Counted from the stretch's first letter, positions 30,481 to 59,097 are shown. The stretch is 64,000 nucleotides of DNA from Longimicrobiales bacterium (GCA_963664435.2 CAXXKM010000002.1:800001-864000), one strand, 5' to 3'. The notes: generated from the letters alone by a model not told the origin. Program-made: numbers and translations.

Positions 30481-30949
30481 TCGGGGATTTCCTGGCCTTT
30501 ACGGCAGACTGACGAAGGCGATTGACCCGCTTGATGGGAAGGAGAGTGGTCTTCATCGGCCTTGGTGACTCCTCCCCTCGCTGCGTGCTCGTAGCGTCGG
30601 TTGACGAACTGGAAGAATAGCATGGTGCCGCTGCGAGTGACCAGCAGATAGCGGATCTCGTTAACGATCAGGAGTCGCGCCGGTCGCATGCCCGTCGTGA
30701 TCGTAGACGAACATGGAGATGCCGCCCTGGGTGACCGATTCCGGGGTAACCTATGCTGGTGGCCGGGACGGGATAGCGCGCTTGTCCCAACCGCAGTTGG
30801 AGGTTGATGTGGTTCCCGATATCCTGCCTCGCGGCCGAAACCCTAACGTTACGGCATGCGGCATCATGTTTGTATCTTTCTGTGGTCGTTAGAGTTACAG
30901 GATTGTCAGGCCGGATTCCCGCTGTTTGACTCCCGCCGAATCGCGAACC

Positions 30950-32107
30950 TCAGCCGCGCGGTCTCGGGCGGGCTTCCAGTGCCTTCCGAAGCTGTCCCTC
31001 GTCGGCTCGCTGATAGCACTGAAGCACCGTCTTGGCGGTCTTCCAGCCTCCGAGGTCGCAGAGGACCTTGAGTGGCTGGTCCATGAGATCGCTCGCGAAC
31101 TTGCGCCTCAACGAGTGCCAGCCCCGCCCACGCTTGGGTTCGAGTCCCGCGAGCTTCTGGGCTCGGTTCCACCAGAAGCGCACCAGCGTCCGGCCCGCGC
31201 ACCGCGACGGATCTCGTGGTGCGGGGAGCACCGGAGCAACCTCGATCCCGGCGCTCCGCTCTCGCGCCTCCTCAAGGACGGCGACCGCCTCGGCCGTCAT
31301 CGGAGTCCGGTGTTCGTAGCCTGTCTTCTCGTGTTCGGCCCTCCACCGGATGGCTCGGGCTTCAAGGTCGATATCCGGCCACCTGAGGTGGCGGATAGCC
31401 CCGATTCGGTGCCCGGTCTCGTGTGCGAGCACGAGCGCGACGTGAAACCGCCAATCGACCTCCCGGGACACCCCGAGAAGCGCCTGGTATTCCTCTTCGG
31501 ACAACACCACCCGCGTGGGGTTCTTCTCCGTGGGCGTCTTCAGACCCTTCAGCGGGTTCGAGCCGAGGAGCAGCCGGCCCTCCTCGTCCTTCGACTTGGC
31601 GGCCCAGTTGAACACGGCGATCAGGAACTTCAGATCGTGTTCGATCGTCGCGTCGGACACCGGTTTGCCGCTCGCTCCGACCTTGCCCGCGCGCCGCGCC
31701 CGGATGAACCGGTCCCAGTCGCGCCGGGAGAGCGTTGAAGGCTTGCGGCCTCGTCCGAAGAACCCGAGGAACATCCTCGTCGCGGCCCGGTCGGCCCGCT
31801 GCGACGCCTCCGCCTTGGTGGGCGTCACCTCTTCACCGTAGATTTCAAACAGCTTGTCCAGCGTGAGCGGCTCGGGCTCGGACTCCGCCTTGCCGTCGGG
31901 CGCGTCGATGAACCCGGCGGCGAACTGATCCGCCTGCTTCTTCGCTCGGGTCCAGTCCCGGTGCCCGAGCGACCGGGTGAGCCTGCGACCGTTCTCGCGC
32001 CACTCAATCTGGAAGAGGCCGGTTTTCGGATCCGGAAAGACCCGGACCCGGTTCCGGCCCCACTCGCCGGCGCCGTAGCTCCGGCGGTTTCGTTTCGTGC
32101 GTGCCAT
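30950..32107 (-). CDS. Tyrosine recombinase/integrase (Int-1)
   Basis: HETGHRIGAI (catalytic R), HEKTG, WHSLRRKFA (HxxR), LGGW, LQCY (Y); N-terminal arm-binding-like domain. Confidence 0.93.
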   Translation of the reverse strand: MARTKRNRRSYGAGEWGRNRVRVFPDPKTGLFQIEWRENGRRLTRSLGHRDWTRAKKQADQFAAGFIDAPDGKAESEPEPLTLDKLFEIYGEEVTPTKAEASQRADRAATRMFLGFFGRGRKPSTLSRRDWDRFIRARRAGKVGASGKPVSDATIEHDLKFLIAVFNWAAKSKDEEGRLLLGSNPLKGLKTPTEKNPTRVVLSEEEYQALLGVSREVDWRFHVALVLAHETGHRIGAIRHLRWPDIDLEARAIRWRAEHEKTGYEHRTPMTAEAVAVLEEARERSAGIEVAPVLPAPRDPSRCAGRTLVRFWWNRAQKLAGLEPKRGRGWHSLRRKFASDLMDQPLKVLCDLGGWKTAKTVLQCYQRADEGQLRKALEARPRPRG

Positions 32108-32404
32108 CGTTCGATACCTCCGATTCGGCAGACTGAGAATGGCACGAATCACGGCGAGGAATCGTCTAACTACTTACAGGGCTGCACGATCTGCGCTTTC
32201 TGCCCTTGAAACGTGTCTCCTCCCGTCGTCCAGAAACGGCGGGTAAATCGCCTCGATTTGCGGGAATCGCATTCCGCCTCCGGCAGTGGCTGGGCGCAGG
32301 TTCGCGAAGCCGACTGCCGCGGTCAATCGTCATCTACTTCGCCCTCTGGACTGGACGTGATCGTCCGGTCTTCCTCTGTCCTTCAACCCCTTCGGATCGT
32401 GGAT

Positions 32405-33242
32405 TCAAGGAGATTCGGCTAGCGTGATCGCGTTTTGCATCGCCCACCCGCAGACCGTCCCCGTGAGCCGGGGGACCGGAGCAACGCCGCCGGCCGCATC
32501 ATCGAGCGATATCCGGCTCTCCAGCTTGTTGGCCAAGTCGCATCGTCCTCCGCGGTCGTCCAATGACCACGTCAACGTACCGGAGACATCCGCCTCGATC
32601 AGAATGCCCGCGTCGTAGGAAAGGGTGATCCGGATCGTTTGCGCCAAGCGGTCGCTGTCCATGAGGAAGGACACGTCGTCGTCGCTGAATACGCAGTCCC
32701 TCGCGGTCAGCGTGCCCTCCAACTCGGCGGACAGCGTACCCTCCGCCAGCGTCAGCATCGCATCCCCCGTGAAGGAGGCTCGGCTGCCATGCGCGCAGGG
32801 AATCTCGGCTCTCGCTGGTGACCGCCCCTTGGAAACCTTGAAGCTCGTATAGGGGCCAAGATGAAGGATCTCGCCGTGAGCCAGCAGGCGCCCGCCGTAC
32901 AGCCCCCGCACCAAGCTTCCAGCGCCGCCGAAGCCTTGGCCGCCGTGATGACATACGCGGCCGTGCCGTCCGCGACCAGCACGCCGTCCCCGTGAACTGA
33001 AGCAAACGGGCTTCGCCGGTCGTGCCCCGCAGGATACCGGCCCGCACGTCCCAGGTTAGTCCCTCGTAGGACGCGAACCGCTCCGCGTCCGCCGCGCGCA
33101 CCAGTAGACTGGCGGAAGGCGATGTGACCGGAGGTGAAGGCGACGGCCACTTCACCGGCCTCGTTAGGGTCCAGTGACGTTCGGAGACGTTCGGCTGGGT
33201 CGGAGACCCGTCAGGTCGCTCCGCCGGTGGCCTGGCGAACAC
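32405..33242 (-). pseudogene. Hypothetical protein split by a frameshift near 32915
   Basis: Two overlapping ORFs; Cys-containing beta-rich C-terminal part. Confidence 0.45.
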
Positions 33243-33423
33243 CCCCGTTGCTGATCACACGGGGCTTCCTCATCTCAGGATGGCGCGACGAGATTCGGCG
33301 CACATTCTGCTTTCTGAAGGCAGGCTGACACTGCCGTTGACAGAGACACGGTTCCTTGTATACTCCGACCGCTCGGGGAGAAAAACTCCCTGAGAGAACC
33401 TTCACAACCCAAAGGAGTTGCAC

Positions 33424-33636
33424 ATGTCTCAGGCCACATTCTCGTGGCGCGCCCGCCTGACCGCCATCGTTGCCGTCTTGGCGGTCTGCGTACTTCCGCT
33501 CGCGGCCCAAGAGATCGATGATTGCTTCCAAGATTGCCACGATCTGGGCATGCTCGCGTACGGCGACGATCAGGACTTGGACAAGGGTTCTGCGGTCTTC
33601 GAGGAGTGCATGGAGACCTTCTGCGGCGGCATGTAG
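33424..33636 (+). CDS. Small secreted acidic 4-Cys peptide
   Basis: RBS aaggag; signal peptide ..LAA-Q; CxxxC..CxxxxC. Confidence 0.75.
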   Translation: MSQATFSWRARLTAIVAVLAVCVLPLAAQEIDDCFQDCHDLGMLAYGDDQDLDKGSAVFEECMETFCGGM

Positions 33637-33647
33637 CCGCGCCCGCC

Positions 33648-34742
33648 GTGAGAACCTACAGATTGGCGGCGGTCGCTTTGGCGATCGCCGCCGCTGGCTG
33701 TTTGCGGGACCAGCCAGCGCCCTCCGAGGAGAGACTAGTCCCGGTTGCCTCCGCGCCTGTCCCGCTGAGTCGGGATAACGGTGTTGCCTTGACGTCGGCG
33801 CGGGAGGCGTGCGTGATCGACTCGTACAATTTCCGCGTTGTGTGCGTCACCCCTGACGAGCGCATCGGTGAGTTCGGAGGGAAGGGCGATGGCCCCGGCG
33901 AGTTCACTCGACCGGTTTGGCTCGGGAGAGTCGCGCTGGACCGCGTGGGCGTCGTTGACACTCGGCAGAATCGGCTAACGGTGTTCAAGACCGATGGCGA
34001 ATTGGTGTCGGACCTGTCGTTGCCTTCGTTGTTCTGGCCCCGGTCAGCCGGGCCGACCAGTCTTTTCGGCGAGGGCCTGCTCGGAGTGACTCCGGGAACC
34101 CAACCGGAAGAGGGAACGAGGCCGAGCGCTGAAACCGTGCTCGTAGAGGTGTCGCTTCAATCCGGCGAGGTACTTTGGCACCGGCGCGGTCTGGAAGAAA
34201 TCGCTACGACCGAATGCGGTAAGTTGGGGTCGGGGATACCAACGCCTAGCGGCGGCTACGTACTCAAGGCGTGCAAGCGGGAACTGGTGTTTCTGGAGGA
34301 TCGAGACGGCATGGCCGCCGCCGTGATTCAATCGCCGAATTACATGGTCGAGTTTCCAAACGAGCGCGACGTGGAGGCCTACCTTGAGGACATGGCCAGC
34401 ATGTTTGGCGGGTCCGCACCGGCATCGGCCATGGAGCCGCACGCAGCCGGATACCGAGAGGAGCCCAAGGCTTGGTTCCTGTTGGATGGACTGATCTTCG
34501 ACGACTTGGGCCGTTTATGGGTCGCCACGCATCGGGACCGCGACGCTTTTTCCTACTTCGACCTCTGGGTAGGCGTCGAGTATGCAGGGACGGTCCAGAT
34601 ACGTGACCGGCTGATCGGCTATGACATCCTGGGTTCGACCCTCGTCGCCTTGGTCGAGCGAACACCGGATCGAAACGGGATTGCTCAGCGGGCGATCGAC
34701 TGGTACGACATCGGCGCGGTCGAGGCCGGTCGTGAAGAGTAG
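33648..34742 (+). CDS. 6-bladed beta-propeller lipoprotein
   Basis: Lipobox AAGC; FGGKGDGPGEF; FDDLGRLWVAT. Confidence 0.8.
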   Translation: MRTYRLAAVALAIAAAGCLRDQPAPSEERLVPVASAPVPLSRDNGVALTSAREACVIDSYNFRVVCVTPDERIGEFGGKGDGPGEFTRPVWLGRVALDRVGVVDTRQNRLTVFKTDGELVSDLSLPSLFWPRSAGPTSLFGEGLLGVTPGTQPEEGTRPSAETVLVEVSLQSGEVLWHRRGLEEIATTECGKLGSGIPTPSGGYVLKACKRELVFLEDRDGMAAAVIQSPNYMVEFPNERDVEAYLEDMASMFGGSAPASAMEPHAAGYREEPKAWFLLDGLIFDDLGRLWVATHRDRDAFSYFDLWVGVEYAGTVQIRDRLIGYDILGSTLVALVERTPDRNGIAQRAIDWYDIGAVEAGREE

Positions 34743-34929
34743 GGTTCTTCACAAGCCGATGCCGATTCTCGTCCGGGGATCTTGAATTCGGCCAGTTTAT
34801 CCGCAACGCACAACACCCCACTCCAGCCCCGCAACCCTGAGCCCGTGTTAGAGTCAGGAGCAGCTTATTGGCCTCGCTGGGCTCGGCGGTTGTGGCTCAC
34901 CCGGATTCGCGTTTCCGCCGTGGTTCAAG

Positions 34930-35020
34930 CCGTGCTCTTCGACTCGATCATCGTGGTCACCGACCGCAAGATCCTGGACCGGCAGATCCGGAACACGATC
35001 AAGTAGTACGCGCAGGCCGA
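34930..35020 (+). pseudogene. Type I restriction HsdR fragment
   Basis: FDSIIVVTDRKILDRQIRNTIK*YAQ. Confidence 0.6.
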
Positions 35021-35769
35021 TACCTTGCGGGGGTGTTTTTCCGCCCCGTTGGCGACGACCGCCGTCGGCTACTCGACGTTATTGGACCTCCTCATACGTT
35101 ATCGACCAATAGGAGATTCCGGGCGGGTTGACTTGCTGGCGGGTGGCTACTCAGCGTTCACGGCATGGAGACGCGGAAGCACCGATTCAGCACGAGGGTA
35201 GGCACTTCCCTCGGGGACCCCGACGCGCCGTCCCCGACGGCCTCGGTGATGAAGTCCCCGAACGTCTCGAACCTCTGGATGGACGGTAAGCGGGACGGAC
35301 ATCAAGGCGCGATTGGCGGCGCGTGGCTGGACCCCGATGCTGCAACGCGTTGCCTCGGCGCGACGTGGGAAATGGCCTATTCCCCACCCACTTGCACGAC
35401 TTGCCGACTCCATGTTCGCCTTCATGCCATGGAGATTGAGAGGAGGCGGTTCGCGGCGGTCGAGGGGAGGGTTCGGGCCGGATGTCATCCCCACGACGGA
35501 CTTTCGCGCCGTCACGGCGCGGACGCCCGAGCCTGGCTGGCGGTCACTCGCCCGCGGGGACGCGAGAAGGCGCTGAAGCCCTTTGGCTGGCTGGATCGCC
35601 GGGACAGCACTGCCCGGCATCCGGGGAGCGCCCGAGTCTTGCGGCATCCATGCCCGGAACCCTTGCCCGGCGCGGGCGCGGTGAGCCCGTGGAGGACGCC
35701 GACGCGGCGGGTTGAACCGGACCGTTCACGGGCGCGGCCCACGGGCTCGTTGGACGCTGCTATTTCAGA

Positions 35770-35840
35770 CAAGCCAGCATACTCCTTGGGGCCACACTTC
35801 GCGTGTCCCCAGGAGAGGCTGGCGGGGGGCCTTGCCCCCT
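35770..35840 (-). other. ColE1-like oriT of IME-2
   Basis: Minus strand GGAGTATGCTGG^CTT after a hairpin; directly upstream of mobC. Confidence 0.75.
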
Positions 35841-35868
35841 GTGACCCCCGGACGGGCAACGGCGCGCC

Positions 35869-36207
35869 ATGAGCGCCCGACGCGCCGTTTGGGTGAAGGT
35901 TCGCGCCAGCGAGGCGGAGCGTGCCGAGTGGCACGCCAAGGCGCGTGCCGCGGGCCTCACGCTGTCGGATCTGGTGCGCCGGTCGGTGAGCCGGACGCGC
36001 ACATGGACCGTGGCGCACGCCGAGGTCGAGCGCGAGCGCGTCCAGCAAGTGGCGCGGATCGGGAACAACCTCAACCAGATCGCCCGCTGGGCGAACACCC
36101 ACCGGGGTGCCATCGAGGCGGTCGAGGTGATCGGCCACCTCGTCGCCATCAGGCGGGCGCTCGCGGCACTGTCCCCCGCCGAAGGTCCGGAGTCGGATGC
36201 TGATTAA
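35869..36207 (+). CDS. mobC: MobC/MbeC relaxosome accessory protein
   Basis: RHH-like N-terminus, ARIGNNLNQIARWAN. Confidence 0.92.
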   Translation: MSARRAVWVKVRASEAERAEWHAKARAAGLTLSDLVRRSVSRTRTWTVAHAEVERERVQQVARIGNNLNQIARWANTHRGAIEAVEVIGHLVAIRRALAALSPAEGPESDAD

Positions 36208-37798
36208 GTTCCTGGCGCACGGGACCGGATCGGCCGGCAAGGCGGCTGGCTACCTCCTCGGCGAGCTGGACGCCGCCGGGAAGCCGCGCGAGGGCGTCGA
36301 GGTCCTTCGGGGCGATCCGAACCAGGTGGCCGCCGTAGCCGACACGCTGGCGTTCGAGCACAGGTACACCTCCGGCGTGATCGCATGGGCGCCGGAGGAC
36401 GAACCGGCCGACGCCGAGATCGAGGCGGTCGTGGACGCCTTCGAGGACACGGCCTGGGCGGGACTGGAGCGCGACCGGTACGCCTGGACCGCCGTGCTGC
36501 ACCGCGAGCGCGGCGGCGGCGCGCACGTCCACGTCCTCGCCGCGCGGTGCGACCTGGAGACCGGCCGGAGCCTCAACATCGCCCGTCCGGGCTGGGAGAA
36601 GACCTTCGGCCCGCTCCGGGACGCCTTCAATTCCGAACACGGCTGGGCTCGCCCGGACGATCCCGCACGGGCCAGGGTGCAGCAACCCGGCCACCGCGCC
36701 TACATCGAAGCGACCCGACTGCGGGCCGGACTACGGCTCGAATCCTCCCCCCGCGACCTGATCCGGGACTACCTGCTCCAGCGCGTCGAGCACGGCACGG
36801 CGCGGAACCGGGCCGATATCGTCGCCGCCCTTCGGGAGGCGGGGCTCGAAGTGCCGCGCCAAGGCAAGGACTACCTCACCGCGCTGGACCCCGAGACCGG
36901 CGACCGGTGGCGGCTGAAAGGAGAACTGTATGGAGAGAACTTCGACCGCGAACGATTTGACCGAGCGGCTGCGGAGGAGGCTGGAGAGCGAGAGACGGGA
37001 GATCGAGGAGTTGACCGCGAGCGAGCTCGAAAGGCTCGGCGAGAACTCGCGGCGCGCCGCGAGGAACGCGCTGCGTTCCATCGAGCGCGATACGGAGGAG
37101 GCGGCCGGGAGGATGCGCCAGCTGCTGGTCAAGGCGTGGCAACGGCCCCTGATCGTAGGCCTGAGCCTTTGGATCGGTTTCTTCGGCGGAAGCTGGGCGA
37201 CGATGCAGTGGTTGTCGAGGAGCATCCAGGACCGGATCGAGACCCGCGCCGAACTGGGCCGGGCCATCGAGGACGCCCGGCGGACACTGGCCCAGCTGGA
37301 GGAGGACACCTGGGGGCTCGTGTTCCGCGAGATCAAGGGCGAGCGGTTCGTGGTGGTGCCGGACGAGGTGCTGGCCGATCCGCCCTGGTGGAAGGTGGAC
37401 GGACACCTTCCGGCGTTGAAGCTGTTGAGAGAGTGAGGGAGCTGTATGAGCGAGTTGGAACGGCAGTTGACGGAGGCCTTGAAGAGGCTCTCCGCGCAGT
37501 ACGCGACGGAGCAGCGGCGGCACTCCGGGCAGGTCGAAGGCTTGAGGCAGCACGTCGAAGCCTTGCGGCAGCGCGTCGAGCGGCAAAGCGAGGAGAACGA
37601 CGCCTTGCGGCAGCACGTCGAGCGGCAGAGCGGGGAGAGCGAAGCCTTGCGGAGGCGAATCGAGTGGCTGAACGAGGACGTTACACGCTTAACCGAGTCG
37701 TACGGCGCGCTCGCCGCAACCTTACGATGATGGTCACGGCGATGCGCCTGCGCGGGCTGGGGCGCGATCGCGATCGCGATTACGGTCCGAGCCGCTGA
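36197..37798 (+). CDS. mobA: ColE1-type (MbeA-like) relaxase
   Basis: MLIKF..GYLLG, VLRGDP, YTSGVI, HVHVL..DLETGRSLN, PDDPAR, RLKGELY. Confidence 0.9.
   Translation: MLIKFLAHGTGSAGKAAGYLLGELDAAGKPREGVEVLRGDPNQVAAVADTLAFEHRYTSGVIAWAPEDEPADAEIEAVVDAFEDTAWAGLERDRYAWTAVLHRERGGGAHVHVLAARCDLETGRSLNIARPGWEKTFGPLRDAFNSEHGWARPDDPARARVQQPGHRAYIEATRLRAGLRLESSPRDLIRDYLLQRVEHGTARNRADIVAALREAGLEVPRQGKDYLTALDPETGDRWRLKGELYGENFDRERFDRAAAEEAGERETGDRGVDRERARKARRELAARREERAAFHRARYGGGGREDAPAAGQGVATAPDRRPEPLDRFLRRKLGDDAVVVEEHPGPDRDPRRTGPGHRGRPADTGPAGGGHLGARVPRDQGRAVRGGAGRGAGRSALVEGGRTPSGVEAVERVRELYERVGTAVDGGLEEALRAVRDGAAAALRAGRRLEAARRSLAAARRAAKRGERRLAAARRAAERGERSLAEANRVAERGRYTLNRVVRRARRNLTMMVTAMRLRGLGRDRDRDYGPSR
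36930..37436 (+). CDS. mobB: MbeB-like mobilization protein (overprinted within relaxase)
   Basis: Coiled coil + TM + TWGL; conserved in the inverted copy 44904-45407. Confidence 0.75.
   Translation: MERTSTANDLTERLRRRLESERREIEELTASELERLGENSRRAARNALRSIERDTEEAAGRMRQLLVKAWQRPLIVGLSLWIGFFGGSWATMQWLSRSIQDRIETRAELGRAIEDARRTLAQLEEDTWGLVFREIKGERFVVVPDEVLADPPWWKVDGHLPALKLLRE
37446..37730 (+). CDS. mobD: MbeD-like protein (overprinted within relaxase)
   Basis: MSELERQLTEAL..L..Y..EQ resembles the MbeD N-terminus; conserved in copy 44616-44894. Confidence 0.75.
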   Translation: MSELERQLTEALKRLSAQYATEQRRHSGQVEGLRQHVEALRQRVERQSEENDALRQHVERQSGESEALRRRIEWLNEDVTRLTESYGALAATLR

Positions 37799-37884
37799 TG
37801 AGCGGGAAATCTGGCGCGGACGGCCTCCCGCAGCGAGCTTTGAGGCGCGCAGATCGTGCGGTCCATCGCGAGAGGAATCGAATG

Positions 37885-39099
37885 ATGGCACGCACGAAGC
37901 GGGACCGGCGCAGCTACAGCGCCGGCGAGTGGGGCCGGAACCGGGTGAGGGTGTTCGCCGATCCCAAGACCGGTCTCTACCAGATAGAGTGGCGAGAGAA
38001 CGGGCGAAGGCTCACCCGGTCCCTGAAACACCGGGACTGGTCGAGGGCCAAGCGTCAGGCGGACGAAGCCGCCGCAGGCCTCGCGATGTACGAGCTCAAC
38101 GGCAAAGCCGAAGCCGAATCCGAGCCGCTCACCCTGGAAGGGCTTTTTGAAATCTACGGTGAGGAGGTGGTCCCGACGAAGCACCGGCGGACCCAGCACC
38201 AGAACAGGGCCACGATGCGGATGTTTCTGGACTTCCTCGGCCGCGACCGAAGACCCGAGACGCTTTCCCGGCGCGACTGGGACCGGTTCATCCGGGAGCG
38301 GCGGGCAGGCAGGGTCGGACCCAGCGGCAGGCCCGCAGCCGACCGTACCATCGTGTGCGACCTGAAAGTCCTGCTCGCGATCCTAAACTGGGCCGCCAAG
38401 TCGAGAGATGAGCGGGGTCGGTTGCTGCTCGACTCCAACCCGCTGAGGGGACTCAGGGTGCCGAAGGTGAAGAACACCACCCGGGTCGTGCTCTCCGACG
38501 AGGAATACGAGGCGCTTCTGAGGGTCTCCGGACAGGTGGGTTGGCGCTTCCGTGTCGCCCTCGTGCTCGCGCACGAAACCGGGCACCGGATCGGAGCCAT
38601 CCGGAAGCTGAGGTGGACGGATATCGACCTCGAAGGCGGAGTCATCCGGTGGAGAGCCGAGCACGAGAAGACCGGATATGAGCACCGAACGCCCGTGACC
38701 GACGAGGCGACCTCCGCCTTGGAGGAGGCGCAGAGGCACGCTAGCGGGACCGGAGACGCCCCGGTTCTGCCCGCGCCGCGGGATCCGTCGACGTGCGTGA
38801 GCCGTACGCTGGTGGGCACTTGGTGGAAGACCGCCGAGAGGCGGGCGGGGTTGGAGCCCAAGCGCGGGAGAGGCTGGCACTCGCTCAGGCGGAAGTTCGC
38901 TTCAGACCTCATCGGGCTGCCCCTCAAGGTGCTTTGCGATCTCGGTGGCTGGAGGGAAGCCAAGACCGTCCTGCGCTGCTATCAGCACACCGACGACGTA
39001 CAACTCAGGACGGCTCTGGACAGCCGTCCCCGCAACGGTCGGCACCCGATCCAATCGGCGGGAACCGAACAGCGGGAATCGGATCACCGAATCCCGTAA
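37885..39099 (+). CDS. Tyrosine recombinase/integrase (Int-2)
   Basis: Same motifs as Int-1 (HETGHRIGAI, WHSLRRKF, LRCY). Confidence 0.93.
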   Translation: MARTKRDRRSYSAGEWGRNRVRVFADPKTGLYQIEWRENGRRLTRSLKHRDWSRAKRQADEAAAGLAMYELNGKAEAESEPLTLEGLFEIYGEEVVPTKHRRTQHQNRATMRMFLDFLGRDRRPETLSRRDWDRFIRERRAGRVGPSGRPAADRTIVCDLKVLLAILNWAAKSRDERGRLLLDSNPLRGLRVPKVKNTTRVVLSDEEYEALLRVSGQVGWRFRVALVLAHETGHRIGAIRKLRWTDIDLEGGVIRWRAEHEKTGYEHRTPVTDEATSALEEAQRHASGTGDAPVLPAPRDPSTCVSRTLVGTWWKTAERRAGLEPKRGRGWHSLRRKFASDLIGLPLKVLCDLGGWREAKTVLRCYQHTDDVQLRTALDSRPRNGRHPIQSAGTEQRESDHRIP

Positions 39100-39272
39100 G
39101 TGACGCGCCCGCAACAGAATCGGCAATCAAGGATTTCTGTCGATTCGATGGACTGCACGATCTGCGCGTTTGAAACCTCGCGCAGGGCACGCCCGTCGTC
39201 CAGAGTTGCGGCCCGGTCGGCTCTGGCGCGGGCGCGCCACGGGGGCGTTGGTTTCTGCGGTTTGTAGAGGAG

Positions 39273-39305
39273 CCAGATGGGTTAACGCTTCACGTTAACC
39301 TCTGG
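39273..39305 (-). other. oriT-like hairpin of IME-1
   Basis: CCAGA..GTTAACG-cttca-CGTTAAC..TCTGG; homolog of 56670-56702 with compensatory changes. Confidence 0.7.
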
Positions 39306-39372
39306 CCGGGGGAGCATCCCCCGGACCCCCGAACGACATTCCGCGCGCCACCCAAAGGAAAGGCCGCCCGTC

Positions 39373-39430
39373 ATGGTCCGTCCCCGGAAGCCCGAGGCCG
39401 AGCGCAGGACTCGCACGATCGGTGTGCGCG
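39373..39430 (+). pseudogene. Truncated mobC (IME-4 type)
   Basis: MVRPRKPEAERRTRTIGVR matches 56765-56822, then similarity ends. Confidence 0.8.
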
Positions 39431-39794
39431 AGGAGCAGCCTCCATGCGCTTGAGATCTTGACCTCTGATCGGCCGGGGTCGGTGGCGTACCGCGCGTGCA
39501 CATCGACATCGGGGGGCATGTGCACGGAATCACCGCGTCCATGTGCGCGGGCAGGGGCTCCGCATATCGCTGCCCGCGTTGCGGTTGTACCACGGCCGCA
39601 CGAACGGCGGTGCCGTTCCAGAGTGTGCGGCCGTGGCGGGAGCGACCCCGCCCTTCGGGTGCCTGGTACGGCACGGCGACGGCCGGGATGTGCACTTCCA
39701 TCCCAACCTCGCCCGGGGTCGCTCCCGATCCATCAGTCCTTGGCAGGAAGGCTAGTCGGTCACCGGAGACGGTCGCGGCCCGAAGCCGAAGGCG

Positions 39795-39985
39795 ACTGCG
39801 GTGGCCAACACCATCGGGCACGGCGACCACATCGAGATCCGGGGCTTCGGCACCTTCAAGGTGCGGCACCGCAAGGCCCGCACGGCCCGCAACCCGAGAA
39901 CCGGCGAACCGGTTCGGGTCCGGCCCGCGATGTGCCGGTCTTCAATCCGTCGAGGCACCTCCGCAGCCGGGTGGAGCGAGGCTCG
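39795..39985 (+). pseudogene. HU/IHF-family fragment
   Basis: IEIRGFGTFKVRHRKARTARNPRTGEPV..VPVFNPS; frameshifted, N-terminus missing. Confidence 0.85.
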
Positions 39986-40060
39986 GTCCATGTCGGCGAC
40001 GAGTCCGGGACGAAGCAAGGCGGGTGTTGGGGAGTGGCAGTGGTCGAAGAGGCGGCGGCG

Positions 40061-40078
40061 AGCTAAGCTAGCTTAGCT
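40061..40078. repeat. Perfect 18-bp palindrome AGCTAAGCTAGCTTAGCT
   Basis: Read directly. Confidence 0.85.
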
Positions 40079-40147
40079 TGATGGTGCCGGATGTGTGGAA
40101 AGCTGACCGTGCACTTGATCGTTCAATTTCGCTACGGGAGCGCTTCG

Positions 40148-40396
40148 ATGGCTGTAACACACTACGATGCGGGGAACGGACCCGTTTGCCAGTACAGGCA
40201 GAGCGCGAAGCAATGGAGCAAGGATGCCAGCAAGGTGAATTGCATCGACTGCCGCCGCCGATCGGGCTTCCCGCTCTTGGTTCATTGGATTTCGCCGCAG
40301 AGGAACATCGCTTGCGGCATGTGGTTCGTGAGGGAAGCGTTCGTGGACAGTGAGAAGCGCGCCGTCACCTGTCTTCGCTGCCGCAAGGCCATGTGA
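40148..40396 (+). CDS. Small protein with two H..C..CxxC zinc-finger-like repeats
   Basis: VNCIDC and VTCLRC; RBS gggag. Confidence 0.6.
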   Translation: MAVTHYDAGNGPVCQYRQSAKQWSKDASKVNCIDCRRRSGFPLLVHWISPQRNIACGMWFVREAFVDSEKRAVTCLRCRKAM

Positions 40397-40410
40397 AAGG
40401 AGAGCTCGAA

Positions 40411-40824
40411 ATGAGGAAGGGCAGGTTTGGACTCGGCGTCGCACTGGCGCTGGGGGTCGTGCCGTGGTTGGCGGGGTGCCAAGACGAAGAGGCGGCGGCA
40501 CGCCGCGGCTTCTTGCAGCAGTCCAGCGCGGCGCTCGCTCCATCTATCGATCCAGCGATCAGCGAAGCATTCTGGGACTGGCAATACTGTCGCATCATGG
40601 GTGAGCACTACTATGGGGATGCGATTCTCCAAGTGGCTGCTGATCCGGAATGGGCGGATCGGTACATGAGAGAGTTGCTCTCGAGGCAGATCCTGGAATC
40701 GGAGCTGGCTCTCTCGGGGCTTGTGGCTGAGGAGGCTCGACCTCATTGTCCTCTGAATGATGCTTTGGAAGCGAAGCTGGACTCGCTGCATGCTCTGATC
40801 GAAGCGAGACCTGATCAGCAGTAA
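40411..40824 (+). CDS. Hypothetical lipoprotein
   Basis: RBS aaggag; lipobox LAGC. Confidence 0.7.
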   Translation: MRKGRFGLGVALALGVVPWLAGCQDEEAAARRGFLQQSSAALAPSIDPAISEAFWDWQYCRIMGEHYYGDAILQVAADPEWADRYMRELLSRQILESELALSGLVAEEARPHCPLNDALEAKLDSLHALIEARPDQQ

Positions 40825-41164: not shown

Positions 41165-41243
41165 AGGGGCAAGCCCCTCGCCAGCCCCAAGTGTATTACT
41201 TTGGGTAGGCTGGCTTAACCACCTTAGCGTGGCTAAGCCAGCC
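41165..41243 (+). other. Orphan ColE1-like oriT with nic region duplicated as an inverted repeat
   Basis: GGCTGG^CTTAACCAC (41208-41222) / GTGGCTAAGCCAGCC (41229-41243). Confidence 0.7.
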
Positions 41244-42039: not shown

Positions 42040-42059
42040 GCGAACCTCCCACGTCGATT

Positions 42060-44571: not shown

Positions 44572-46140
44572 TCAGCGGCTCGGACCCTGATCGCGGTCCG
44601 GTCCCGGGCGGCGCATCAGATACGGAGGCCGCGCGGTCTCGCGACGGCGGATGTCCCGGAATACTCGGCCAAGCGTGTCGCCAGCGCGTCGAGCCGCTCG
44701 ATTCGCATCAGCAAGGCTTCGTACTCCGCGCTCTGCCGCTCGACGTGCTGCCGCAAGGCTTCGATCTGCCCGCTTTGCCGCTCGACGTGCCCTTGCAAGG
44801 CTTCGACCTGCCCGCAGTGCCGCCGCTGTTCCGTTTCGTACTGCTCGGACAACTTCCGCAAGGCCCTCGTCAACTGCTCCTCTAACGCTGTCATAGACCT
44901 CCTTCACTCGTTGGACAGCTTCAACGCCGGACGATCCCCATCCACCCACCAAGGTGGATCGGCCAGCACCCCGTCCGGCACCACCACGAACCGCTCGCCC
45001 TTGATCTCGTGGAACACGAGCCCCCAGGTGTCCACCTCCAGTTGGGCCAGCGTCCGCCGGGCGTCCTCGATGTCCCGGTTCAGTTCGGCGCGGGTCACGA
45101 TCCGGTCCTGGATGCTGCTCGCCAACCAGCGCATCGTCGCCCAGCTTCCGCCGAAGAAACCGATCCAAAGACTCAGGCCGACGATCAGCGGCCGTTGCCA
45201 CGCCTTGGCCAGCAATTCGCGCATCTTGCCGGTCGCCTCCTCCGTATCGCGCTCGATGGTACGCAGCGCGTTCCTCGCGACGCGCCGCGAGTTCTTGGCG
45301 AGCCGTTCGAGCTCGCTCGCGGTCAACTCCTCGATCTCCCGGCGCTCGCTCTTCAGCCGGCTCCGCAGCCTCTCGGTCAAATCGTTCGCGGTCGAAGTTC
45401 TCTCCATACAGTTCTCCTTTCAGCCGCCACCGGTCCCCGGTCTCGGGGTCCAGCGCGGTGAGGTAGTCCTTGCCCTGGCGCGGCACTTCGAGGCCCGCCT
45501 CCCGCAGTGCGGAGACGACATCGGCACGGTTCCGCACAGTGCCGTGCTCGACGCGCTGGAGCAGGTAGTCCCGGATCAGATCGCGGGGTGAGGATTCGAG
45601 CCGAAGCCCGGTCCGCAGCTGCGCCGCTTCGATGTAGGCGCGGTGGCCGGGCTGCTGCACTCTGGCCCTGGCCGGATCGTCGGGACGGCTCCAGCCGTGT
45701 TCGTGGTTGAAGGTGTCGCGAAGCGGATCGAACGTCCTCCGCCATCCCGGAGGCGCGATGTTGAGGCTCCGGCCGGTCTCCAGGTCGCACCGTGCGGCAA
45801 GGACATGCACGTGCGCGCCGCCGCCCTCCTCGCGGTGCAGCACGGCCGCCCACGCGTATCGGTCGGGCTCCAGCCCCGCCCAAGCCGTCTTCTCGAACAG
45901 GTCGAGCACCGCCTCGATCTGCTCGTCGGTGGGGTGGTCGTCCGGCGCCCAAGCGATCACGCCGGAGGTGTACCTGTGCTCGAAGTCGAGCGAGTCGGCC
46001 ACCGCGGCCACCATGTCCGGATTCCCCCGCAGCACCTCGACGCCCTCGCGCGGCTTCCCGGCAGCGTCCCGCTCCCCCAAGAGGTAGCCAGCCGCCTTGC
46101 CGGCCGAGCCGGTCCCGTGCGCCAGGAACTTAATGTGCAT
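44572..46140 (-). CDS. mobA: ColE1-type relaxase (copy 2)
   Basis: Close paralog of 36197-37798. Confidence 0.9.
   Translation of the reverse strand: MHIKFLAHGTGSAGKAAGYLLGERDAAGKPREGVEVLRGNPDMVAAVADSLDFEHRYTSGVIAWAPDDHPTDEQIEAVLDLFEKTAWAGLEPDRYAWAAVLHREEGGGAHVHVLAARCDLETGRSLNIAPPGWRRTFDPLRDTFNHEHGWSRPDDPARARVQQPGHRAYIEAAQLRTGLRLESSPRDLIRDYLLQRVEHGTVRNRADVVSALREAGLEVPRQGKDYLTALDPETGDRWRLKGELYGENFDRERFDREAAEPAEERAPGDRGVDRERARTARQELAARREERAAYHRARYGGGDRQDARIAGQGVATAADRRPESLDRFLRRKLGDDALVGEQHPGPDRDPRRTEPGHRGRPADAGPTGGGHLGARVPRDQGRAVRGGAGRGAGRSTLVGGWGSSGVEAVQRVKEVYDSVRGAVDEGLAEVVRAVRNGTAAALRAGRSLARARRAAKRADRSLAAARRAAERGVRSLADANRAARRAGDTLGRVFRDIRRRETARPPYLMRRPGPDRDQGPSR
44616..44894 (-). CDS. mobD: MbeD-like protein (copy 2)
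   Basis: MTALEEQLTRAL.. Confidence 0.7.
   Translation of the reverse strand: MTALEEQLTRALRKLSEQYETEQRRHCGQVEALQGHVERQSGQIEALRQHVERQSAEYEALLMRIERLDALATRLAEYSGTSAVARPRGLRI
44904..45407 (-). CDS. mobB: MbeB-like protein (copy 2)
   Basis: Paralog of 36930-37436. Confidence 0.72.
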   Translation of the reverse strand: MERTSTANDLTERLRSRLKSERREIEELTASELERLAKNSRRVARNALRTIERDTEEATGKMRELLAKAWQRPLIVGLSLWIGFFGGSWATMRWLASSIQDRIVTRAELNRDIEDARRTLAQLEVDTWGLVFHEIKGERFVVVPDGVLADPPWWVDGDRPALKLSNE

Positions 46141-47990: not shown

Positions 47991-50458
47991 TCATCGAGCG
48001 GAGGCGGTGGGCGCTCCGGCGATCGCGCGCAACCTTCCGCATTGCTCGATCAGCCATTCGGCGGCCTCCGGCCATTCGTCTTCGTCGTCACGCGTCCAGC
48101 GTCTTCGGACCGCGACTGACCAGCCTTTCACACTGTTTTGCTCCACATTGTCGTCGACATCCTGATCGGCCATCTGCTCGAAGATCATCCAGGAGTACTT
48201 CCGCATCCGAGCGGTTCTCTCGTGCGATGCCTTGCTTTCCCCGGATCGCACATAGAGCCAGAGCCTCTCTGGGTTTCCGACGTAGATCCCGATAACGTCA
48301 CCGTGCGAGTTGAAGGGATCGGTCCACTGCGTTGCCCCCCTCCACGTATCCTTTTGTCCGGGAACGCCGCCGAAACTCTTCTTGAGGAACCTCCAGAAGG
48401 CTTGTGTCCGACTCTTCTCCTCGAACTCGACTTCGACCGCCACGCCGCATCGCTCCCCCATCTTCCGGCAATGGTCGGCACTCGCGCGGTAGTCCTGACG
48501 GTACGGGTACAGCACGTAGTCCTCATGGCCGGGGACTGCGCGCATGGTCAGGGTTCCCGCCGTGGTCCCAGCCGGATAGCGCTTAGCCAAGTGAAGATTC
48601 GAGCTGATCGCTTCCCCTGACAGTCTCTCAGCGTTCTTCGGATCCAGGCTGAGTAGGGCTGCCGCTACGCTCAGCAACATTTGGCTCGCACTGCTTTCCT
48701 CATGCCAAGCCCCATCCCCAACACGCCACCTGAGGCTCGCCGACGCGACCTTCGTGCGGCTCGCGGACCCGGCCCCGTCCTGCCAGGGCCAGCGGGCCAA
48801 CGCCCGCCCCGCCAAGTCCGCAGCCCGCCGTTCAATCGCGGCCTCGTTCCAGTCGTCCTCGCCCGCGAGCCGTCTCGTCAGCCCGATCGAACTCCGGCGG
48901 TACACCCTGCGCTTGGCGTCGAACGTATCCGTGCCCATTTCGGAATTGGTGACATCGCCGCTCAGCGTCAAGTTGGGGAGCCGGTCCCGATACCGCCCGT
49001 GTACTTCCTCGGCATCGCCGCCCAACGCTTTCTTCCAGTCGTCAGTCAGCTTCTGCGGCATCACATGCTCGATCGTCAGATGGTCGCGGGCCGGTGCTTC
49101 CTCACGGTGCTCGGCCTCCATGAGCGCACACAGAACCGCGAACGACGACCGGGTGGCGCTGCCTCCGTAGGCCTTACGGCTCCGAAGTCCTTCCCGAACC
49201 TCCTCGTCGTTGGGTATCCCGACGCGCGTGTTCCGAAGCCTACGAATCCGATTTAGCCAGTACTCCGCAACGTCATCCCCAGCATCAGGTCCTGGTCCAT
49301 GGGCGAGGTCTACGATCGCCCTGTTCATCCCGGCGGTCGCCCGGTCCGCGAGCCACAAGCGGGTGGTCCACATCGCGATCCCCGAAAGGGTGGTTGCGAG
49401 GTCGTTCATCTGCGCTCCGGGAGCAGCGGGTTCGCCCGAGTCATTTAGGAGTCGCAACGTCAGCGGACGGTGAATGTCGATCCCCATCACGCGTAGGTGG
49501 CGGAGTTCTCGTTCGACTTTAGAGTTGGGGTGCGCGCCCGCCGTGCCGATCACGATGCCGTACAGCCCTGCGAGCCGGGCCAGATCACGGCACAGGGCCG
49601 GTCGCTCCACAGAAAGCTCCTTTCGCAATGCCCACCGGCGAAGGGCTTCGTAGACGTGATCGATGCCTTGAACCTTCCCCGTCCACCAGCGAAGGACATC
49701 CCGAAGGAAGATGTCGGTGGGCTCAGTTGTGTGCTCGGCGCCCAGACTTCGCTCGATCCGCTTCCAATGGTTGTCGTGGAGATCCTGTTGCTGCTCGTCC
49801 GGCAATCCCATGAGGAGCCAGTTCTTGACCTTCTCGCTCTCCGTGAGAGGTCGGCCGGTCGCATTCAGGCTCTCGAAGATCTGCTGCGGATCGTCGCCGC
49901 CAGCGAGCCCGATGCTCACCACCCGAAGCCGTTCGAGTCCCCTCAGTAGGCGGGCGACTTCGTTTCGCGCAACGAGGCGGCGGGCGACTCTCCAAGCCTG
50001 CGCTACCGCCCCGGCACCCGTTGGACGGCCATCAAGGCCGAGTCGATACTCTTCCTCGTCGCCGTTCTGAAGCCTCAGCTTGCGCAGTTTGTCCGGGCGC
50101 TTTCCAGGATTCGTGAGCCGATCATTGCGGATGATGGCTGCCGTCCAGTCCCCGCATTGGCCCTTGGGTCCGAGCTTTTCCGCTATGCACCCAGGAGGAT
50201 GCTCACGGTCGTCAGCCTCTGCTGACCATCCACGACACGGATGGTCTTGACCACGCCAGCGGCACCGGGATCCGGGAAGGTGAGCAGGTTCCCGGCGTAG
50301 TGTGTTGCGTCGGGGCCCGCGTCCGCGACGGTCAGGAGATCCTCTACCAGCCGCTCGATATCGGATTGGCCCCAGCGATATCGCCGCTGCCAGCGCGGCA
50401 CCACGTATTGGACCTGTCCGTTGAAGAGTTCCAAGAACTCGATTGGGTGGGCAAACAT
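47991..50458 (-). pseudogene. GmrSD-like DUF262-DUF1524 endonuclease with a single frameshift near 50190
   Basis: VPRWQRRYRW, VVDGQQRLTT, IFESLNATG, TIEHVMPQ..LPNLTL..NS. Confidence 0.85.
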
Positions 50459-50850
50459 GGACTCGCTTCCGTTCCTCACGATGGGTAGGGTGACCGATGG
50501 ACCAGCGTCCTATCGCCAAGAGTGGTCCGAAAGCTAGGGGCCACCGTAGGGACAGAGACGGGATGGCCGCCCAAGTATGACCTCTGCCGAAGTGGTGGGC
50601 AATCGCCGGTCGACGCCCCCTCGACATCCATGCTGCTCGCGGCGCCGCTGCCGTAGCGGCCTGCCCTCACCCTACGTCGAAACGCGGGATCAGCGGGCGG
50701 AGGGGGTGGCGGTTGGCAACAGGGTCGGTTCGTCCCAGGCCCTTGGCCCGGACACTAGATGGGATACCTTTAGCGTCGGCGTGAAGGCCGACGCAGTACA
50801 TGCTGACCTTTCAAGGACGGAGGCCGACGCGCGTCGGCACGGAGAACACA

Positions 50851-51477
50851 ATGGAGTCGTGTTTCATCTACTGGGACAATTCGAACATCTTCCACGAAGC
50901 TCAGCGGCTTGCCGAGGAGCGAGCCGAAGGTCCGGGCGCACGCTATCGGGTGCGAGTCCACTTTGACAGCCTGCTAGTACTCGCGAACGCAGGCCGGCCC
51001 GTCGAGCGGGCGTTCGCCGTCGGGTCGATTCCGCCCGAATTGCGTCAGCTCTGGAACCGAATGGAGGCCAACGATATCGAGGTGAAGTTGTTTGACCGGG
51101 GTGATCCGCACCGTGGTGAGCAGGACGTTCCGGACCGTCTTCTCCAACTGCGGATGCTCGAAGATGCGCTGGACTACAACGGCGATCCCGGAATTGCCGT
51201 ACTCCTCAGCGGCGATGGGGCTGGCTATCTCGAAGGTGCGGGTTTCCACCGGACGCTTGAGCGCATGCACAGCAGAGGGTGGCGTATCGAGATTCTGTCT
51301 TGGGCTCATTCCTGCAACCAGCGTATGCGGCGCTGGGCAGAGGAGCACGGAGTCTTCGTTGCGCTCGACGATTTCTACGAAGAGATCACCTTCATGGAGC
51401 CATCGAGTCCGGGCCACGAATTCGCTCTCCCAAGATCCCAAGCGCCACTCGACCTGTCCCGCCGTCCAATCTCCTAA
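50851..51477 (+). CDS. NYN (PIN-like) domain protein
   Basis: IYWDNSNI, EQDVPD, LLSGDG, GWRIEILSW. Confidence 0.88.
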   Translation: MESCFIYWDNSNIFHEAQRLAEERAEGPGARYRVRVHFDSLLVLANAGRPVERAFAVGSIPPELRQLWNRMEANDIEVKLFDRGDPHRGEQDVPDRLLQLRMLEDALDYNGDPGIAVLLSGDGAGYLEGAGFHRTLERMHSRGWRIEILSWAHSCNQRMRRWAEEHGVFVALDDFYEEITFMEPSSPGHEFALPRSQAPLDLSRRPIS

Positions 51478-52658: not shown

Positions 52659-52669
52659 GTGCTTTCCCT

Positions 52670-53080: not shown

Positions 53081-53989
53081 TTGACTAGCCACGAACGCGA
53101 CAACGCAAACAGGATCGGAAGGGCTAAGCGATGGGCTGGGCTGGCAATCGCCGTAGGTTCACGGCTCGCGGCCGTGCCCCGCTCCCTGGCCCAGATGCCC
53201 AATGAAGTCTGGCAGAAGCTGGCATCGCGCGGGACCACGATCAGTCCGGACGCCCTCTACGATCTCATCCCCGCGGGCGTAAAGACGGGGACCGACGATG
53301 TGCTGGCCTTCCTCGGGAAACGCGATCTCAGTCACATCAAGTCCAAGCACCGCCGACCAGATCTCGCGAACGACCCCACGAACGTTCTGTTCGAGAAGCG
53401 GTGGTGGAACCGCCGCCGCGGATCGCGGAACATGAAGCGGTGGGAAGTGACCCGCGCCCGGCTGGACAACTTCGCCGAGGGAGTGGTCAAGGGCGCGCGC
53501 GCCACTACAGTGGCAGCGGCCAAGGGGGCGATCCTGGGGGCTCTGATGGAATTGCCTGTGTCAGCCGCCGAGAATCTTGTTCTGGTTCGGGGCAGGGGTA
53601 AGAGCAGGAAGGAGGCGTGGACGGATGTAGCGCGCGACGTTGGCAGGAGTGCCGTGACCGGCGCGGCGGGAACCGTCGTGGCCACCGGAATCGCCATGAT
53701 CGGTGTTCCAATGGCTCCAGCAGTAGCGGTTCCGATTGCCGTGGTCGGGAGCACGCTCTACACATGGTCGGCAGCGGAACGGGTATGGAAGGCGCGAGCC
53801 AGGGTGGGATCGGCAGATCCGCCAGTGTTGGCTCGAGGATTTGATCCCGACTCTGCGCCGGACCTCTCGACGGACGGCTGGCCGGAGAAGTTTGCTAAAG
53901 CCCCCGTGCTTCGGGGGCTACCCTCCGATGGCGCGACCGAGAATATCTTTCCCCATCCGGTTGTCCCAGCGAGATACGGAGAACGGTGA
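53081..53989 (+). CDS. Hypothetical protein: HNH/His-Me-like motif plus C-terminal membrane helices
   Basis: RBS ggagg + TTG; DLSHIKS..DPTNVLFE..N..RG. Confidence 0.6.
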   Translation: MTSHERDNANRIGRAKRWAGLAIAVGSRLAAVPRSLAQMPNEVWQKLASRGTTISPDALYDLIPAGVKTGTDDVLAFLGKRDLSHIKSKHRRPDLANDPTNVLFEKRWWNRRRGSRNMKRWEVTRARLDNFAEGVVKGARATTVAAAKGAILGALMELPVSAAENLVLVRGRGKSRKEAWTDVARDVGRSAVTGAAGTVVATGIAMIGVPMAPAVAVPIAVVGSTLYTWSAAERVWKARARVGSADPPVLARGFDPDSAPDLSTDGWPEKFAKAPVLRGLPSDGATENIFPHPVVPARYGER

Positions 53990-55272
53990 CCCCCAACGAA
54001 TTCATTGCGAAGTGGCACGCCTCGGAGCTGAAGGAGCGCTCCGCAGCGCAGGAGCACTTCATCGACTTGTGCCGCCTGCTCGACGAACCCACGCCAGCGG
54101 AGGCCGACCCGAAGGGCGACCACTACTGCTTCGAGCGCGGAGCGCTCAAGGACTCCGGCGGGGGAGGCTGGGCGGACGTCTGGAAGCGCCACTGCTTCGC
54201 CTGGGAGTACAAGGGGAAGCACGCGGATCTCGATGCCGCGTTCGATCAGTTGAGGCAGTACGCGCTCGCACTGGAGAACCCGCCGCTGCTGATCGTCTCC
54301 GACATGCGCCGGTTCCGGGTCCGGACGAACTGGACGAACTCCGTGAGCAAGACACACGAGTTTGGACTGGACGATCTCGCGGACGCTGCCGTCCGAGACA
54401 AGCTCAAGTGGGCGATGTCCGATCCCGAGCGGCTGCGGCCGGGGGAAACCCGGCAGACGCTCACGGAACGAGCCGCCGAGACCTTCGCGCAGCTCGCACA
54501 GTCGCTCCGAGTCCAGGGCCACGCCCCGCAGGAGGTGGCACACTTTGTCAACCGCCTCGTGTTCTGCATGTTCGCCGAGGACGTGGGTCTGCTCCCCAAC
54601 GCCATGTTCACTCGCATGCTCGAACACGCGCGTCAGCAGCCCGATGCGTTCGCGACGCTGGCGCGCGATCTGTTCGGGGCGATGTCCGTTGGTGGCCGGG
54701 TAGGGTTCGAGACCGTGGAATGGTTCAACGGCGGGCTCTTCGAGGATGACACGACCCTCCCCATGGACAAGGCCCAGATCGAGACGACCCTGAAAGCGTC
54801 CGGACTCGACTGGTCCAACATCGACCCCTCGATCCTGGGGACGCTGTTCGAGCGGGGCCTCGACCCCGACAAGCGCTCTCAGCTCGGGGCGCACTACACG
54901 GACCGGGACAAGATCATGCGGATCATCGACCCGGTGATCGTTCGTCCCTTGCTGGCCGAGTGGGAGACCGTGAAGGCGCGGATTGGAAAGAGCATCGAGC
55001 GCGCGAACGCGGCCAAGTCAAAGGGCGTGGAGACGCGCCACCGCAACCAAGCGGAGAATTCGCTCGGTGCGTTCCTGGAGCGGCTGCGGAAGTTTGCCGT
55101 GCTCGACCCGGCCTGCGGGTCCGGCAACTTTCTCTACCTGGCGCTCCACACCCTCCACGATCTGGAACACCGAGTGCAGCTCGAAGCTGAGGCGATGGGG
55201 CTCCAGCGCGGCTTCCCTTCGGTCGGTCCCGCGAACGTAAAGGGCATCGAGTTGAACGCCTACGCGACATGA
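53986..55272 (+). pseudogene. MmeI-like type IIG/IIL restriction-methyltransferase, interrupted by IME-4
   Basis: ADVWKR..EYK, FNGGLF, ILGTLFERGLD, GAHYT, VLDPACGSGNFL; stops abruptly at GIELNAYA with no NPPF or TRD. Confidence 0.88.
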
Positions 55273-55362
55273 GCACTTTGAGTCACATATCGTTGTGAGC
55301 GTGTAGCTTACGGGATTCGGGGGTCAGATTCCCGCTGATTGACTCCCGCCGATTGGTTTGGG

Positions 55363-59093: not shown

Positions 59094-59097
59094 CGGG

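Follow-up and report, generated by a model that had tools for sequence, protein, structure and literature searches.

Background

How an integrase changes its target is an old question, which has mostly been approached via single laboratory mutants. Among the closest described systems, mv4 Int was found with random libraries to recombine any overlap provided that attP equals attB, and it tolerates degenerate core sites (10.1101/2023.11.06.565760). In the ICEHptfs3/4 integrative and conjugative elements (ICEs) of Helicobacter pylori (TnPZ, XerT), the duplicated heptamer makes up about the whole target requirement, a condition termed 'intermediate specificity', with 40 sites in 45 genomes and elements nested in one another (PMC4234485). 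For Sa3int of phi13, integration into an imperfect site leaves mismatched attL and attR, and excision gives attP variants of better match (PMC8649754), while the specificity change of lambda at secondary sites is credited by PMC8371274 to Rutkai 2006. IntDOT of CTnDOT recombines inverted as well as mismatched overlaps, with orientation set by the overlap (PMC2817482), and site-promiscuous integrase clades (TIGER/Islander, Mageeney 2020) are mentioned in PMC9580842 and PMC12884075. Here we describe a family of integrative mobilizable elements (IMEs) from a 64,000-nucleotide stretch of DNA of a Longimicrobiales bacterium (GCA_963664435.2 CAXXKM010000002.1:800001-864000), called the window below; positions are counted from its first letter unless a genome or contig is named.

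Each of these elements carries a 7-bp sequence, the core, repeated at its two ends. The ends have a fixed spacing, the repeats are exact, the core is inherited, and it changes between near-identical integrases with both ends still matching. We consider it probable that these are relaxase-carrying elements with a lambda-type integrase, in which the lineage-specific core is likely both the overlap and the target address, likely replaced by the heptamer of the target in rare mismatch-tolerant events. An original prediction, made from the sequence of the window, had reported fixed attachment (att) site geometry with a different core in every copy, and it is evaluated along with our results.

Results

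Elements of the window and their ends

Three elements of the window, IME-1, IME-2 and IME-4, share one end layout. The GCGGGAATC arm motif is found at 30914 (minus strand), 39072 (plus) and 55327 (minus), and the arm-to-core spacing is 60 bp in all three; on the opposite arm, the CTGCACGATCTGC box lies 54 bp from the core in IME-1 and IME-2. Both distances proved exact as predicted, with all the earlier coordinates right, and the same holds for the three cores CGTAACG, CGATTCG and CGCGTAG, each directly preceded by TGY.

IME-1 (30847-43133, minus strand) covers 12.3 kb including the nested IME-2 and occupies the palindrome AACCCTRA-CGTWACG-TYAGGGTT. It is delimited by the only two CGTAACG copies in the window, the integrase-proximal one at 30847-30853 (attR overlap) and the far-end one at 43127-43133, both on the minus strand. 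The paired putative arm-type sites, two GCGGGA motifs 14 bp apart (30914-30937, minus; the role is presumed), lie next to int-1 (30950-32107, minus), coding for a 385-aa tyrosine integrase with an N-terminal three-strand arm-binding fold and a conserved catalytic set. The far-end arm-like sites and box occupy 42986-43072 (minus), the box itself being at 43060-43072.

IME-2 (32121-39147, plus strand, 7027 bp) is nested in IME-1, where it separates the ribosome-binding site from the box in the int-1 5' untranslated region (UTR). CGATTCG stands at its far end (32121-32127, plus) and beside the integrase (39141-39147, plus). The far-end CTGCACGATCTGC box (32182-32194, plus), 54 bp from the core, has arm-like GCGGG(T/A) sites after it, as far as 32268. 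The element encodes mobC and an MbeA-like (MOBP) relaxase (35869-37798, plus) as well as int-2 (37885-39099, plus), 73% identical to int-1, whose open frame continues through the paired putative arm-type sites (39057-39080, plus).

IME-4 (15,986 bp) extends past the window end. Its integrase-proximal core CGCGTAG lies at 55260-55266 (minus) and the partner core at 871239-871245 of contig C2 in the own genome (G000), again with a box 54 bp away. The paired putative arm-type sites (55327-55350, minus) are followed by int-4 (386 aa, 55363-56523, minus), a member of the relaxed CGCGTAG clade, by its 5' UTR box (56549-56561, plus, inverted relative to the far-end box), and by mobC with a MOBP relaxase (56756-58308, plus). 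The core coincides, as had been predicted, with the break in an MmeI-like restriction-modification gene, the 5' part of which spans 53986-55266 (plus), and an MmeI-like open reading frame (ORF) of 953 aa reappears when IME-4 is excised in silico. An empty paralogue of the IME-1 target is present at 20975-20998 (plus), a palindrome with a spacer one base longer, to which both IME-1 flanks match, and the empty IME-2 site reads like the uninterrupted 5' UTR of int-4. Because the restored ORF, the empty paralogue and the intact 5' UTR are independent checks, the borders of the elements are confirmed.

A further integrase, int-3 (43478-44434, minus), is truncated at residue 318 without the catalytic HxxR or Y, and is a sister of a tRNA-Pro-targeting integrase. 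The likely far end of its element, with core TCCCAAA, is at C2:877246, 13 kb past the window, so that IME-4 probably sits inside the int-3 element and, together with the restriction-modification gene, is probably its cargo. The int-3 element has a relaxase as well (44572-46140, minus). Among the window ORFs scanned, no type IV secretion system families were matched, nor was a relaxase in IME-1 outside IME-2; within this set, IME-2 and IME-4 combine an integrase, a relaxase and MobC with no conjugation channel, as is expected of IMEs.

The CTGCACGATCTGC box has one copy at the far end and a second, inverted copy directly ahead of the int ribosome-binding site; in the window, copies lie at 32182-32194, 37849-37861, 39153-39165 and 56549-56561. 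By its insertion, IME-2 has moved the int-1 5' UTR box (39153-39165, plus) 7 kb off int-1, which could switch int-1 expression. The far-end box is complementary to the copy in the int 5' UTR. A role of the far-end box as an RNA hairpin or antisense was considered and is unsupported, the consensus fold over 210 far ends reaching -1.2 kcal/mol with a 5-bp stem. A joint of 32120 to 39141 with a 7-base overlap was present in 4/4 runs; the sides of this IME-2 skip are just 23-25 bases, and it probably derives from uninterrupted paralogues.

The family in its own genome and beyond

The own genome contains 32 matches to int-1 (68-100% identity), 27 of them with an intact 3' end, and 26 of these 27 could be paired with an upstream far end via an exact 7-mer. 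In shuffles of the 26 cores the mean was 1.6 matches and the maximum 9 (100,000 shuffles). Arm spacing was 60 bp in 23 and box spacing 54 bp in 20 of the 26 pairs, so the conserved spacing and the cognate direct repeat, which the original prediction had named as checks, both extend to further homologs. The repeat is exactly 7 bp with no extension in 8/26 elements, and inverted C/C' motifs lie beside the core. Pairs of GCGGGA, 13-14 bp apart, are found at all 27 integrase ends, and the consensus of 210 far ends keeps such a pair, so that putative arm-type repeats flank the core on either side at a constant spacing. The unpaired 27th end is attP-like, a junction that has lost 3 bp. One and the same attP-like junction, joining integrase end and far end and lacking 3 bp in the core region, is chromosomal in two species (G000:C3:543-868 and G011:C2:204439).

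Beyond this genome, the integrase is present in 17/18 other genomes of the genus, with about 30 family copies per genome, and the far-end box in 45 of 301 genomes of the phylum, mostly in two families. Whole-family protein searches at very strict E-values gave matches in the own genome alone. Ten runs holding the family are sponge metagenomes, and the host bacteria are likely sponge symbionts.

The core is inherited with the integrase

To compare cores, 235 integrase ends were pooled from own, related and public loci; six rows were shifted by one base according to the C-side sequence of their relatives, and nine, one of these six among them, were dropped before counting for an unresolved core register. 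Counts of identity pairs given below are not independent of one another, though close and distant pairs differ greatly. Integrases at least 97% identical had the same core in 51 of 64 pairs, and all 64 were within one base; at 60-75% identity the core was shared in 3 of 13,809 pairs. The set confirmed at both ends (84 elements, 46 cores) gave a shared core in 31/48 pairs at 93% identity or more and in 5/3212 pairs below 80%. The pairs of at least 97% identity with unrelated right-hand host flanks kept the same core in 18 of 21 cases, and TGCGGTA is found at unrelated flanks in 98% sisters. Judged from these sequences, the core is an inherited property of the lineage. Routine target-site duplication was rejected because the core is shared by close integrases even at unrelated flanks: near-identical elements at unrelated sites retain it.

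The family has 92 distinct cores, 46 of them confirmed at both ends. The claim of a different core in every copy is contradicted both by this inheritance and by the own genome, where 20 distinct cores occur among 26 paired ends; nor are the integrases of the window closely related, as they had been called, being 73-76% identical. Similarly, the formula CG-N4-G describes the three window cores but does not hold as a family rule, since it fits 22 of the 92.

Target requirements differ between clades

In the int-4 clade, CGCGTAG is the core of 16 of 22 relatives and the flanks are mostly unrelated. Position B-2 is G in 22/23 cases and B'+2 is C in 15/15 distinct flanks, and little else is fixed; the own genome has 90 such sites. 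When int-4-type far ends were collected without specifying the core (n = 20), CGCGTAG was intact in 16, and five further relatives had it at both ends with four different right-hand flanks. The CGCCTCG and TGCGGTA clades, too, are found at unrelated flanks.

Every relative in the int-1 clade sits at AACCCTRA-CGTWACG-TYAGGGTT, a target fixed in sequence but dispersed in genomes. Of the palindrome CCCTGACGTWACGTCAGGG, 16 of the 18 other genus genomes contain 3-21 copies each (it was not found in G006 and G008), and 4/8 genomes of another family contain a single one; copies include window 20975-20998, G000 C1:121687 and C3:1457564. For int-2 there are two observations, in both of which the right-hand flank is an int 5' UTR. 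In three own-genome members, the 7-nt anticodon loop of a tRNA is the core. Still other clades insert at defined positions within sibling elements, for example at int codons or at an internal hairpin seen at 41180 and 46574.

This hairpin, GCCAGCC...GTAGGCTGGC (41180-41213 and 46574), is conserved, internal to the elements and a landing site of several sibling clades. The first copy (41180-41213, plus) reads GCCAGCC...GGGTAGGCTGGC and the second starts at 46574; the hairpin family is the target of the TGGGTAG, GGGGTAG and GGAGTCG clades, and its sequence is possibly part of a transfer origin.

The target flanks, which the original prediction had called unrelated, are mostly so in the int-4 clade but not at the int-1 palindrome, the tRNA loops or the spots in sibling elements. 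A single conserved attB per integrase, as in lambda, is a trait of some clades only (tRNA, CGGGATG) and not of the family. In the sites compared, the flank requirement is clade-specific, ranging from about G-N-core-N-C (int-4) to the full palindrome (int-1).

How cores change

In the set confirmed at both ends, the core differs in 17 of the 48 pairs of at least 93% identity. At one homologous int codon, 93-94% sisters carry CGAAGCG or CGAAGAA, and in each the two ends agree with the target allele that it occupies; a 94% sister that entered this codon in reverse orientation has CGCTTCG at both ends, the exact reverse complement of CGAAGCG. A second codon is occupied by 96% sisters whose flanks are identical and whose cores are TGGGGAC or TGGAGAG. 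Of 31 int-1-clade members, 15 have A and 16 have T as the central base of the core, with no clustering on the tree (9 changes; shuffled mean 10.6). An exact reverse-complement partner exists for 22 of the 92 cores, against a null mean of 3.8 and maximum of 16 in 5000, where the null ignores relatedness. Changes at core positions 1-7 number 7, 8, 16, 29, 14, 14 and 2, position 4 being inflated by the int-1 flips, and where the cores of sisters differ, it is mostly in one to three bases, next to an unaltered C-side sequence. The relaxed or retargetable specificity of the original prediction is thus borne out by the flanks of some clades and by the 17 differing pairs, but has to be set against the inheritance of the core.

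Ends can also be rearranged: two elements of G011 have cross-matched ends after an inversion. Two far ends stand head to head round one core at G011:C10:265270-265386 and at G005:C1:4300873-4300989; in G011 this core is CAAAATG for one element and CATTTTG for the other. Such a head-to-head arrangement is an element inserted in the att site of a sibling.

The integrase is of lambda type

The proteins int-1, int-2 and int-4 match PF00589 above cut-off, and R234, K261, H331, R334, W355 and Y365, conserved in the integrase alignment, identify them as tyrosine recombinases. NCBIfam returned Xer models only, all below cut-off, and a PDB sequence search one weak archaeal Xer match. The top Foldseek match of the predicted model was full-length lambda Int (387 columns). 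The model has strands at residues 21-25, 32-38 and 41-46 and a helix at 52-63, with a pLDDT of about 70-79 there, so that a three-stranded N-terminal arm-binding domain, as in heterobivalent integrases, is predicted. Among the secondary-structure elements of the model, no long extra hairpin of the kind inserted in the catalytic domain of IntTn916 was evident. As modelled, the protein is of three-domain lambda-type architecture.

The arm domain is almost invariant, and variation is highest in helices 101-110 and 301-320 and at residue 158; int-1, int-2 and int-4 differ in these most variable helices. Several pairs with different cores show little or no difference there. The presumed role of these helices in flank reading follows that known from lambda Int and Cre, and the combination of an invariant arm domain with variable helices would fit fixed arms and a tunable reading of flanks.

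The original prediction had set the family apart from both lambda-type and Tn916-type elements. The distinction from the mismatched coupling sequences of Tn916 stands with the exact 7-bp repeats. The distinction from lambda does not, the architecture being lambda-type; it is wrong for the chemistry because, by the classical rule, the 7 bp of the overlap may have any sequence but must be identical.

Other features of the islands

A group II intron (RVT_1 and maturase) lies in a far-end arm at L262:330-2400 (G001:C1:1634779-1636900). Its end adjoins the arm identically at five more G001 far ends and at G005:C1:1645225, and similarly at a sixth G001 end; the intron appears to target the att arm of the family. 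Cargo segments are duplicated between neighbouring islands at 82-97% identity (17174-21695 versus 29342-30851, 43278-43481 and 57706-59997). Further cargo includes a GmrSD restriction nuclease (47991-50627), an NYN-domain protein (50800-51477), an SNF2 helicase with a NOV_C domain (60235-63540) and a protein with a Tle1-like catalytic domain (15017-15985). An IHF/HU-like gene fragment inside IME-1 (39801-40076) is below NCBIfam cut-offs. C2 and C1, two contigs of G000, share 3200 identical bases where their ends overlap, and three nested elements cross the join.

Discussion

In the mechanism that we favour, the invariant N-terminal domain would bind the GCGGGA arms, while the variable core-binding helices would recognise short inverted motifs that adjoin the core (C = YCYGY, C' = RCRGA); in the host these would mostly amount to just G at -2 and C at +2. 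Integration would normally require a 7/7 match, leaving an exact repeat. Occasionally, an element may enter a site with one to three mismatches, or its own target in reverse; the next excision would then yield a heteroduplex attP, in which strand transfer or replication would fix the new heptamer, and the lineage would thereby be re-aimed without a change of the protein. Such a rare mismatch-tolerant or flipped insertion, followed by an excision fixing the target heptamer, seems to be the simplest account of the core changes seen among these sequences.

Several results weigh against it. The imperfect repeats that it predicts as intermediates are rare and uncertain: of 78 integrase ends in three surveyed genomes, 61 had a perfect partner, 3 a candidate with one or two mismatches and 14 none in range, a partly fetched fourth genome added one more one-mismatch candidate, and one imperfect-repeat candidate couples an int-4-type far end with the integrase of another clade. 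In paired int-1-clade elements the central bases match in 14/14, though this base is randomly distributed over the tree. The core changed at 37/644 sites and the adjacent spacer at 83/644; with a core slower-changing than its spacer, plain drift can explain single-base steps. Core position 1 is Y in 85/92 and position 7 is R in 81/92, so the overlap is not fully free, and the int-2 target is without the G-2/C+2 signature. Deep clades differ in the variable helices, hence protein change also contributes, and L190, where a foreign end accompanies an int-4-like protein, shows that end-swapping also retargets. Finally, no convincing excised-circle or empty-IME-1 joint was seen among the joints listed for four runs, represented by contigs only.

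A bolder alternative, which we regard as no more than tentative, is a self-retargeting integrase programmed by DNA. An integrase of int-4 type would need only G-N-(7 bp)-N-C with the 7 bp provided by attP, and a mismatched or flipped insertion would write the target heptamer on both junctions in one step, so that one protein could reach thousands of addresses. The programmable half of this proposal is well supported, and the postulated one-step overwriting of two ends would fit the random A/T centre and the 14/14 matching ends of the int-1 clade.

A strict lambda-type system, where each integrase recognises a fixed attB, cores differ through divergence of the protein and no mismatch tolerance is needed, would agree with the 73-76% identity and differing variable helices of the window trio, with the many clades at fixed flanks (int-1 palindrome, tRNAs, CGGGATG site), with perfect repeats in 61/64 two-ended elements and with a core changing more slowly than the adjacent spacer. 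We nevertheless find it unlikely, as the int-4, CGCCTCG and TGCGGTA clades are at unrelated flanks. Under strict homology, moreover, point mutation could hardly yield the exact three-base reverse-complement flips between 94% sisters at one site, or an A/T centre that is random across the tree of the int-1 clade.

Even less probable is target-site duplication, by which insertion would be near-random, the 7 bp found would be copied to both ends at each hop and the core would be uninformative. Exact repeats of many different sequences, same-site sisters that match their own target allele at both ends, and a central-base mismatch in 0/14 paired int-1-clade elements are what it would produce. It fails on the same core at unrelated sites (18/21 pairs of at least 97% identity, 16/22 int-4 relatives, TGCGGTA in 98% sisters); such retention could be imitated by a protein that reads a conserved target motif, but a single fold would then have to recognise 92 heptamers. 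Least probable of all is that nested or inverted co-resident siblings exchange ends, by the integrase or homologously, and so acquire a new core with its arms: the roughly 30 copies per genome, the foreign end of L190, the cross-matched G011 ends and the head-to-head far ends with a common core speak for such exchange, but swapping reshuffles existing cores and makes no new heptamers, and most sister changes are of one to three bases with the C-side neighbour retained.

The family comprises hundreds of natural copies that share an end layout but differ in address, with dozens of addresses, flank needs from two bases to a full palindrome, and captured flips; as natural copies vary in cores and flank needs, overlap change and protein change are separable on the tree and testable by exchanging short stretches of att sequence. 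Should an assay confirm the int-4 rule, it would be a basis for an integrase that is directed to its target through a 7-bp edit in the donor DNA. The nested islands reshaping these genomes are explained as well, since several clades insert into the int gene, the int 5' UTR or the internal hairpin of the family itself.

Comparison with known systems

The family resembles lambda and mv4 in its three-domain protein, paired arm sites and a likely 7-bp overlap between short inverted core sites, and in some members also in the use of tRNA anticodon loops as overlap. It differs in that lambda and mv4 have one natural attB each and overlap swaps made in the laboratory, whereas here 92 natural cores go with shared arm motifs and some clades fix just about two host bases outside the core. 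Adaptation of attP, as described for Sa3int, is like the route that we propose; there a single primary site is used, while here the process would have given dozens of stable addresses including reverse-complement flips. ICEHptfs3/4 use AAGAATG for both ICE types, in contrast to one heptamer per lineage here, and AAGAATG is absent from the 92 cores; moreover, our family consists of relaxase-only IMEs with an arm-binding integrase, for which no close relationship to XerT was seen, no test aimed at it having been made. With CTnDOT, Tn916 and Tn1549 it shares a relaxed choice of target (PMC2817482, PMC8138268), but in those systems non-identical overlaps are routine, and here the ends are identical in 61/64 two-ended elements. 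The family is not a member of the Tn916 type or of ICEHptfs. Integrase clades at many unrelated sites are a likeness to the TIGER/Islander ones.

PMC8138268 does not mention Gemmatimonad-, and no published description of a family-wide core radiation was found in the literature searched, from which most subscription journals were missing. Each ingredient has a precedent: the overlap in lambda and mv4, attP adaptation in Sa3int, and the heptamer target in the Helicobacter AAGAATG ICEs. Three points are new: the scale on which natural addresses have diversified within a single end layout, how very little flank sequence some clades require, and the flips of cores to their reverse complement.

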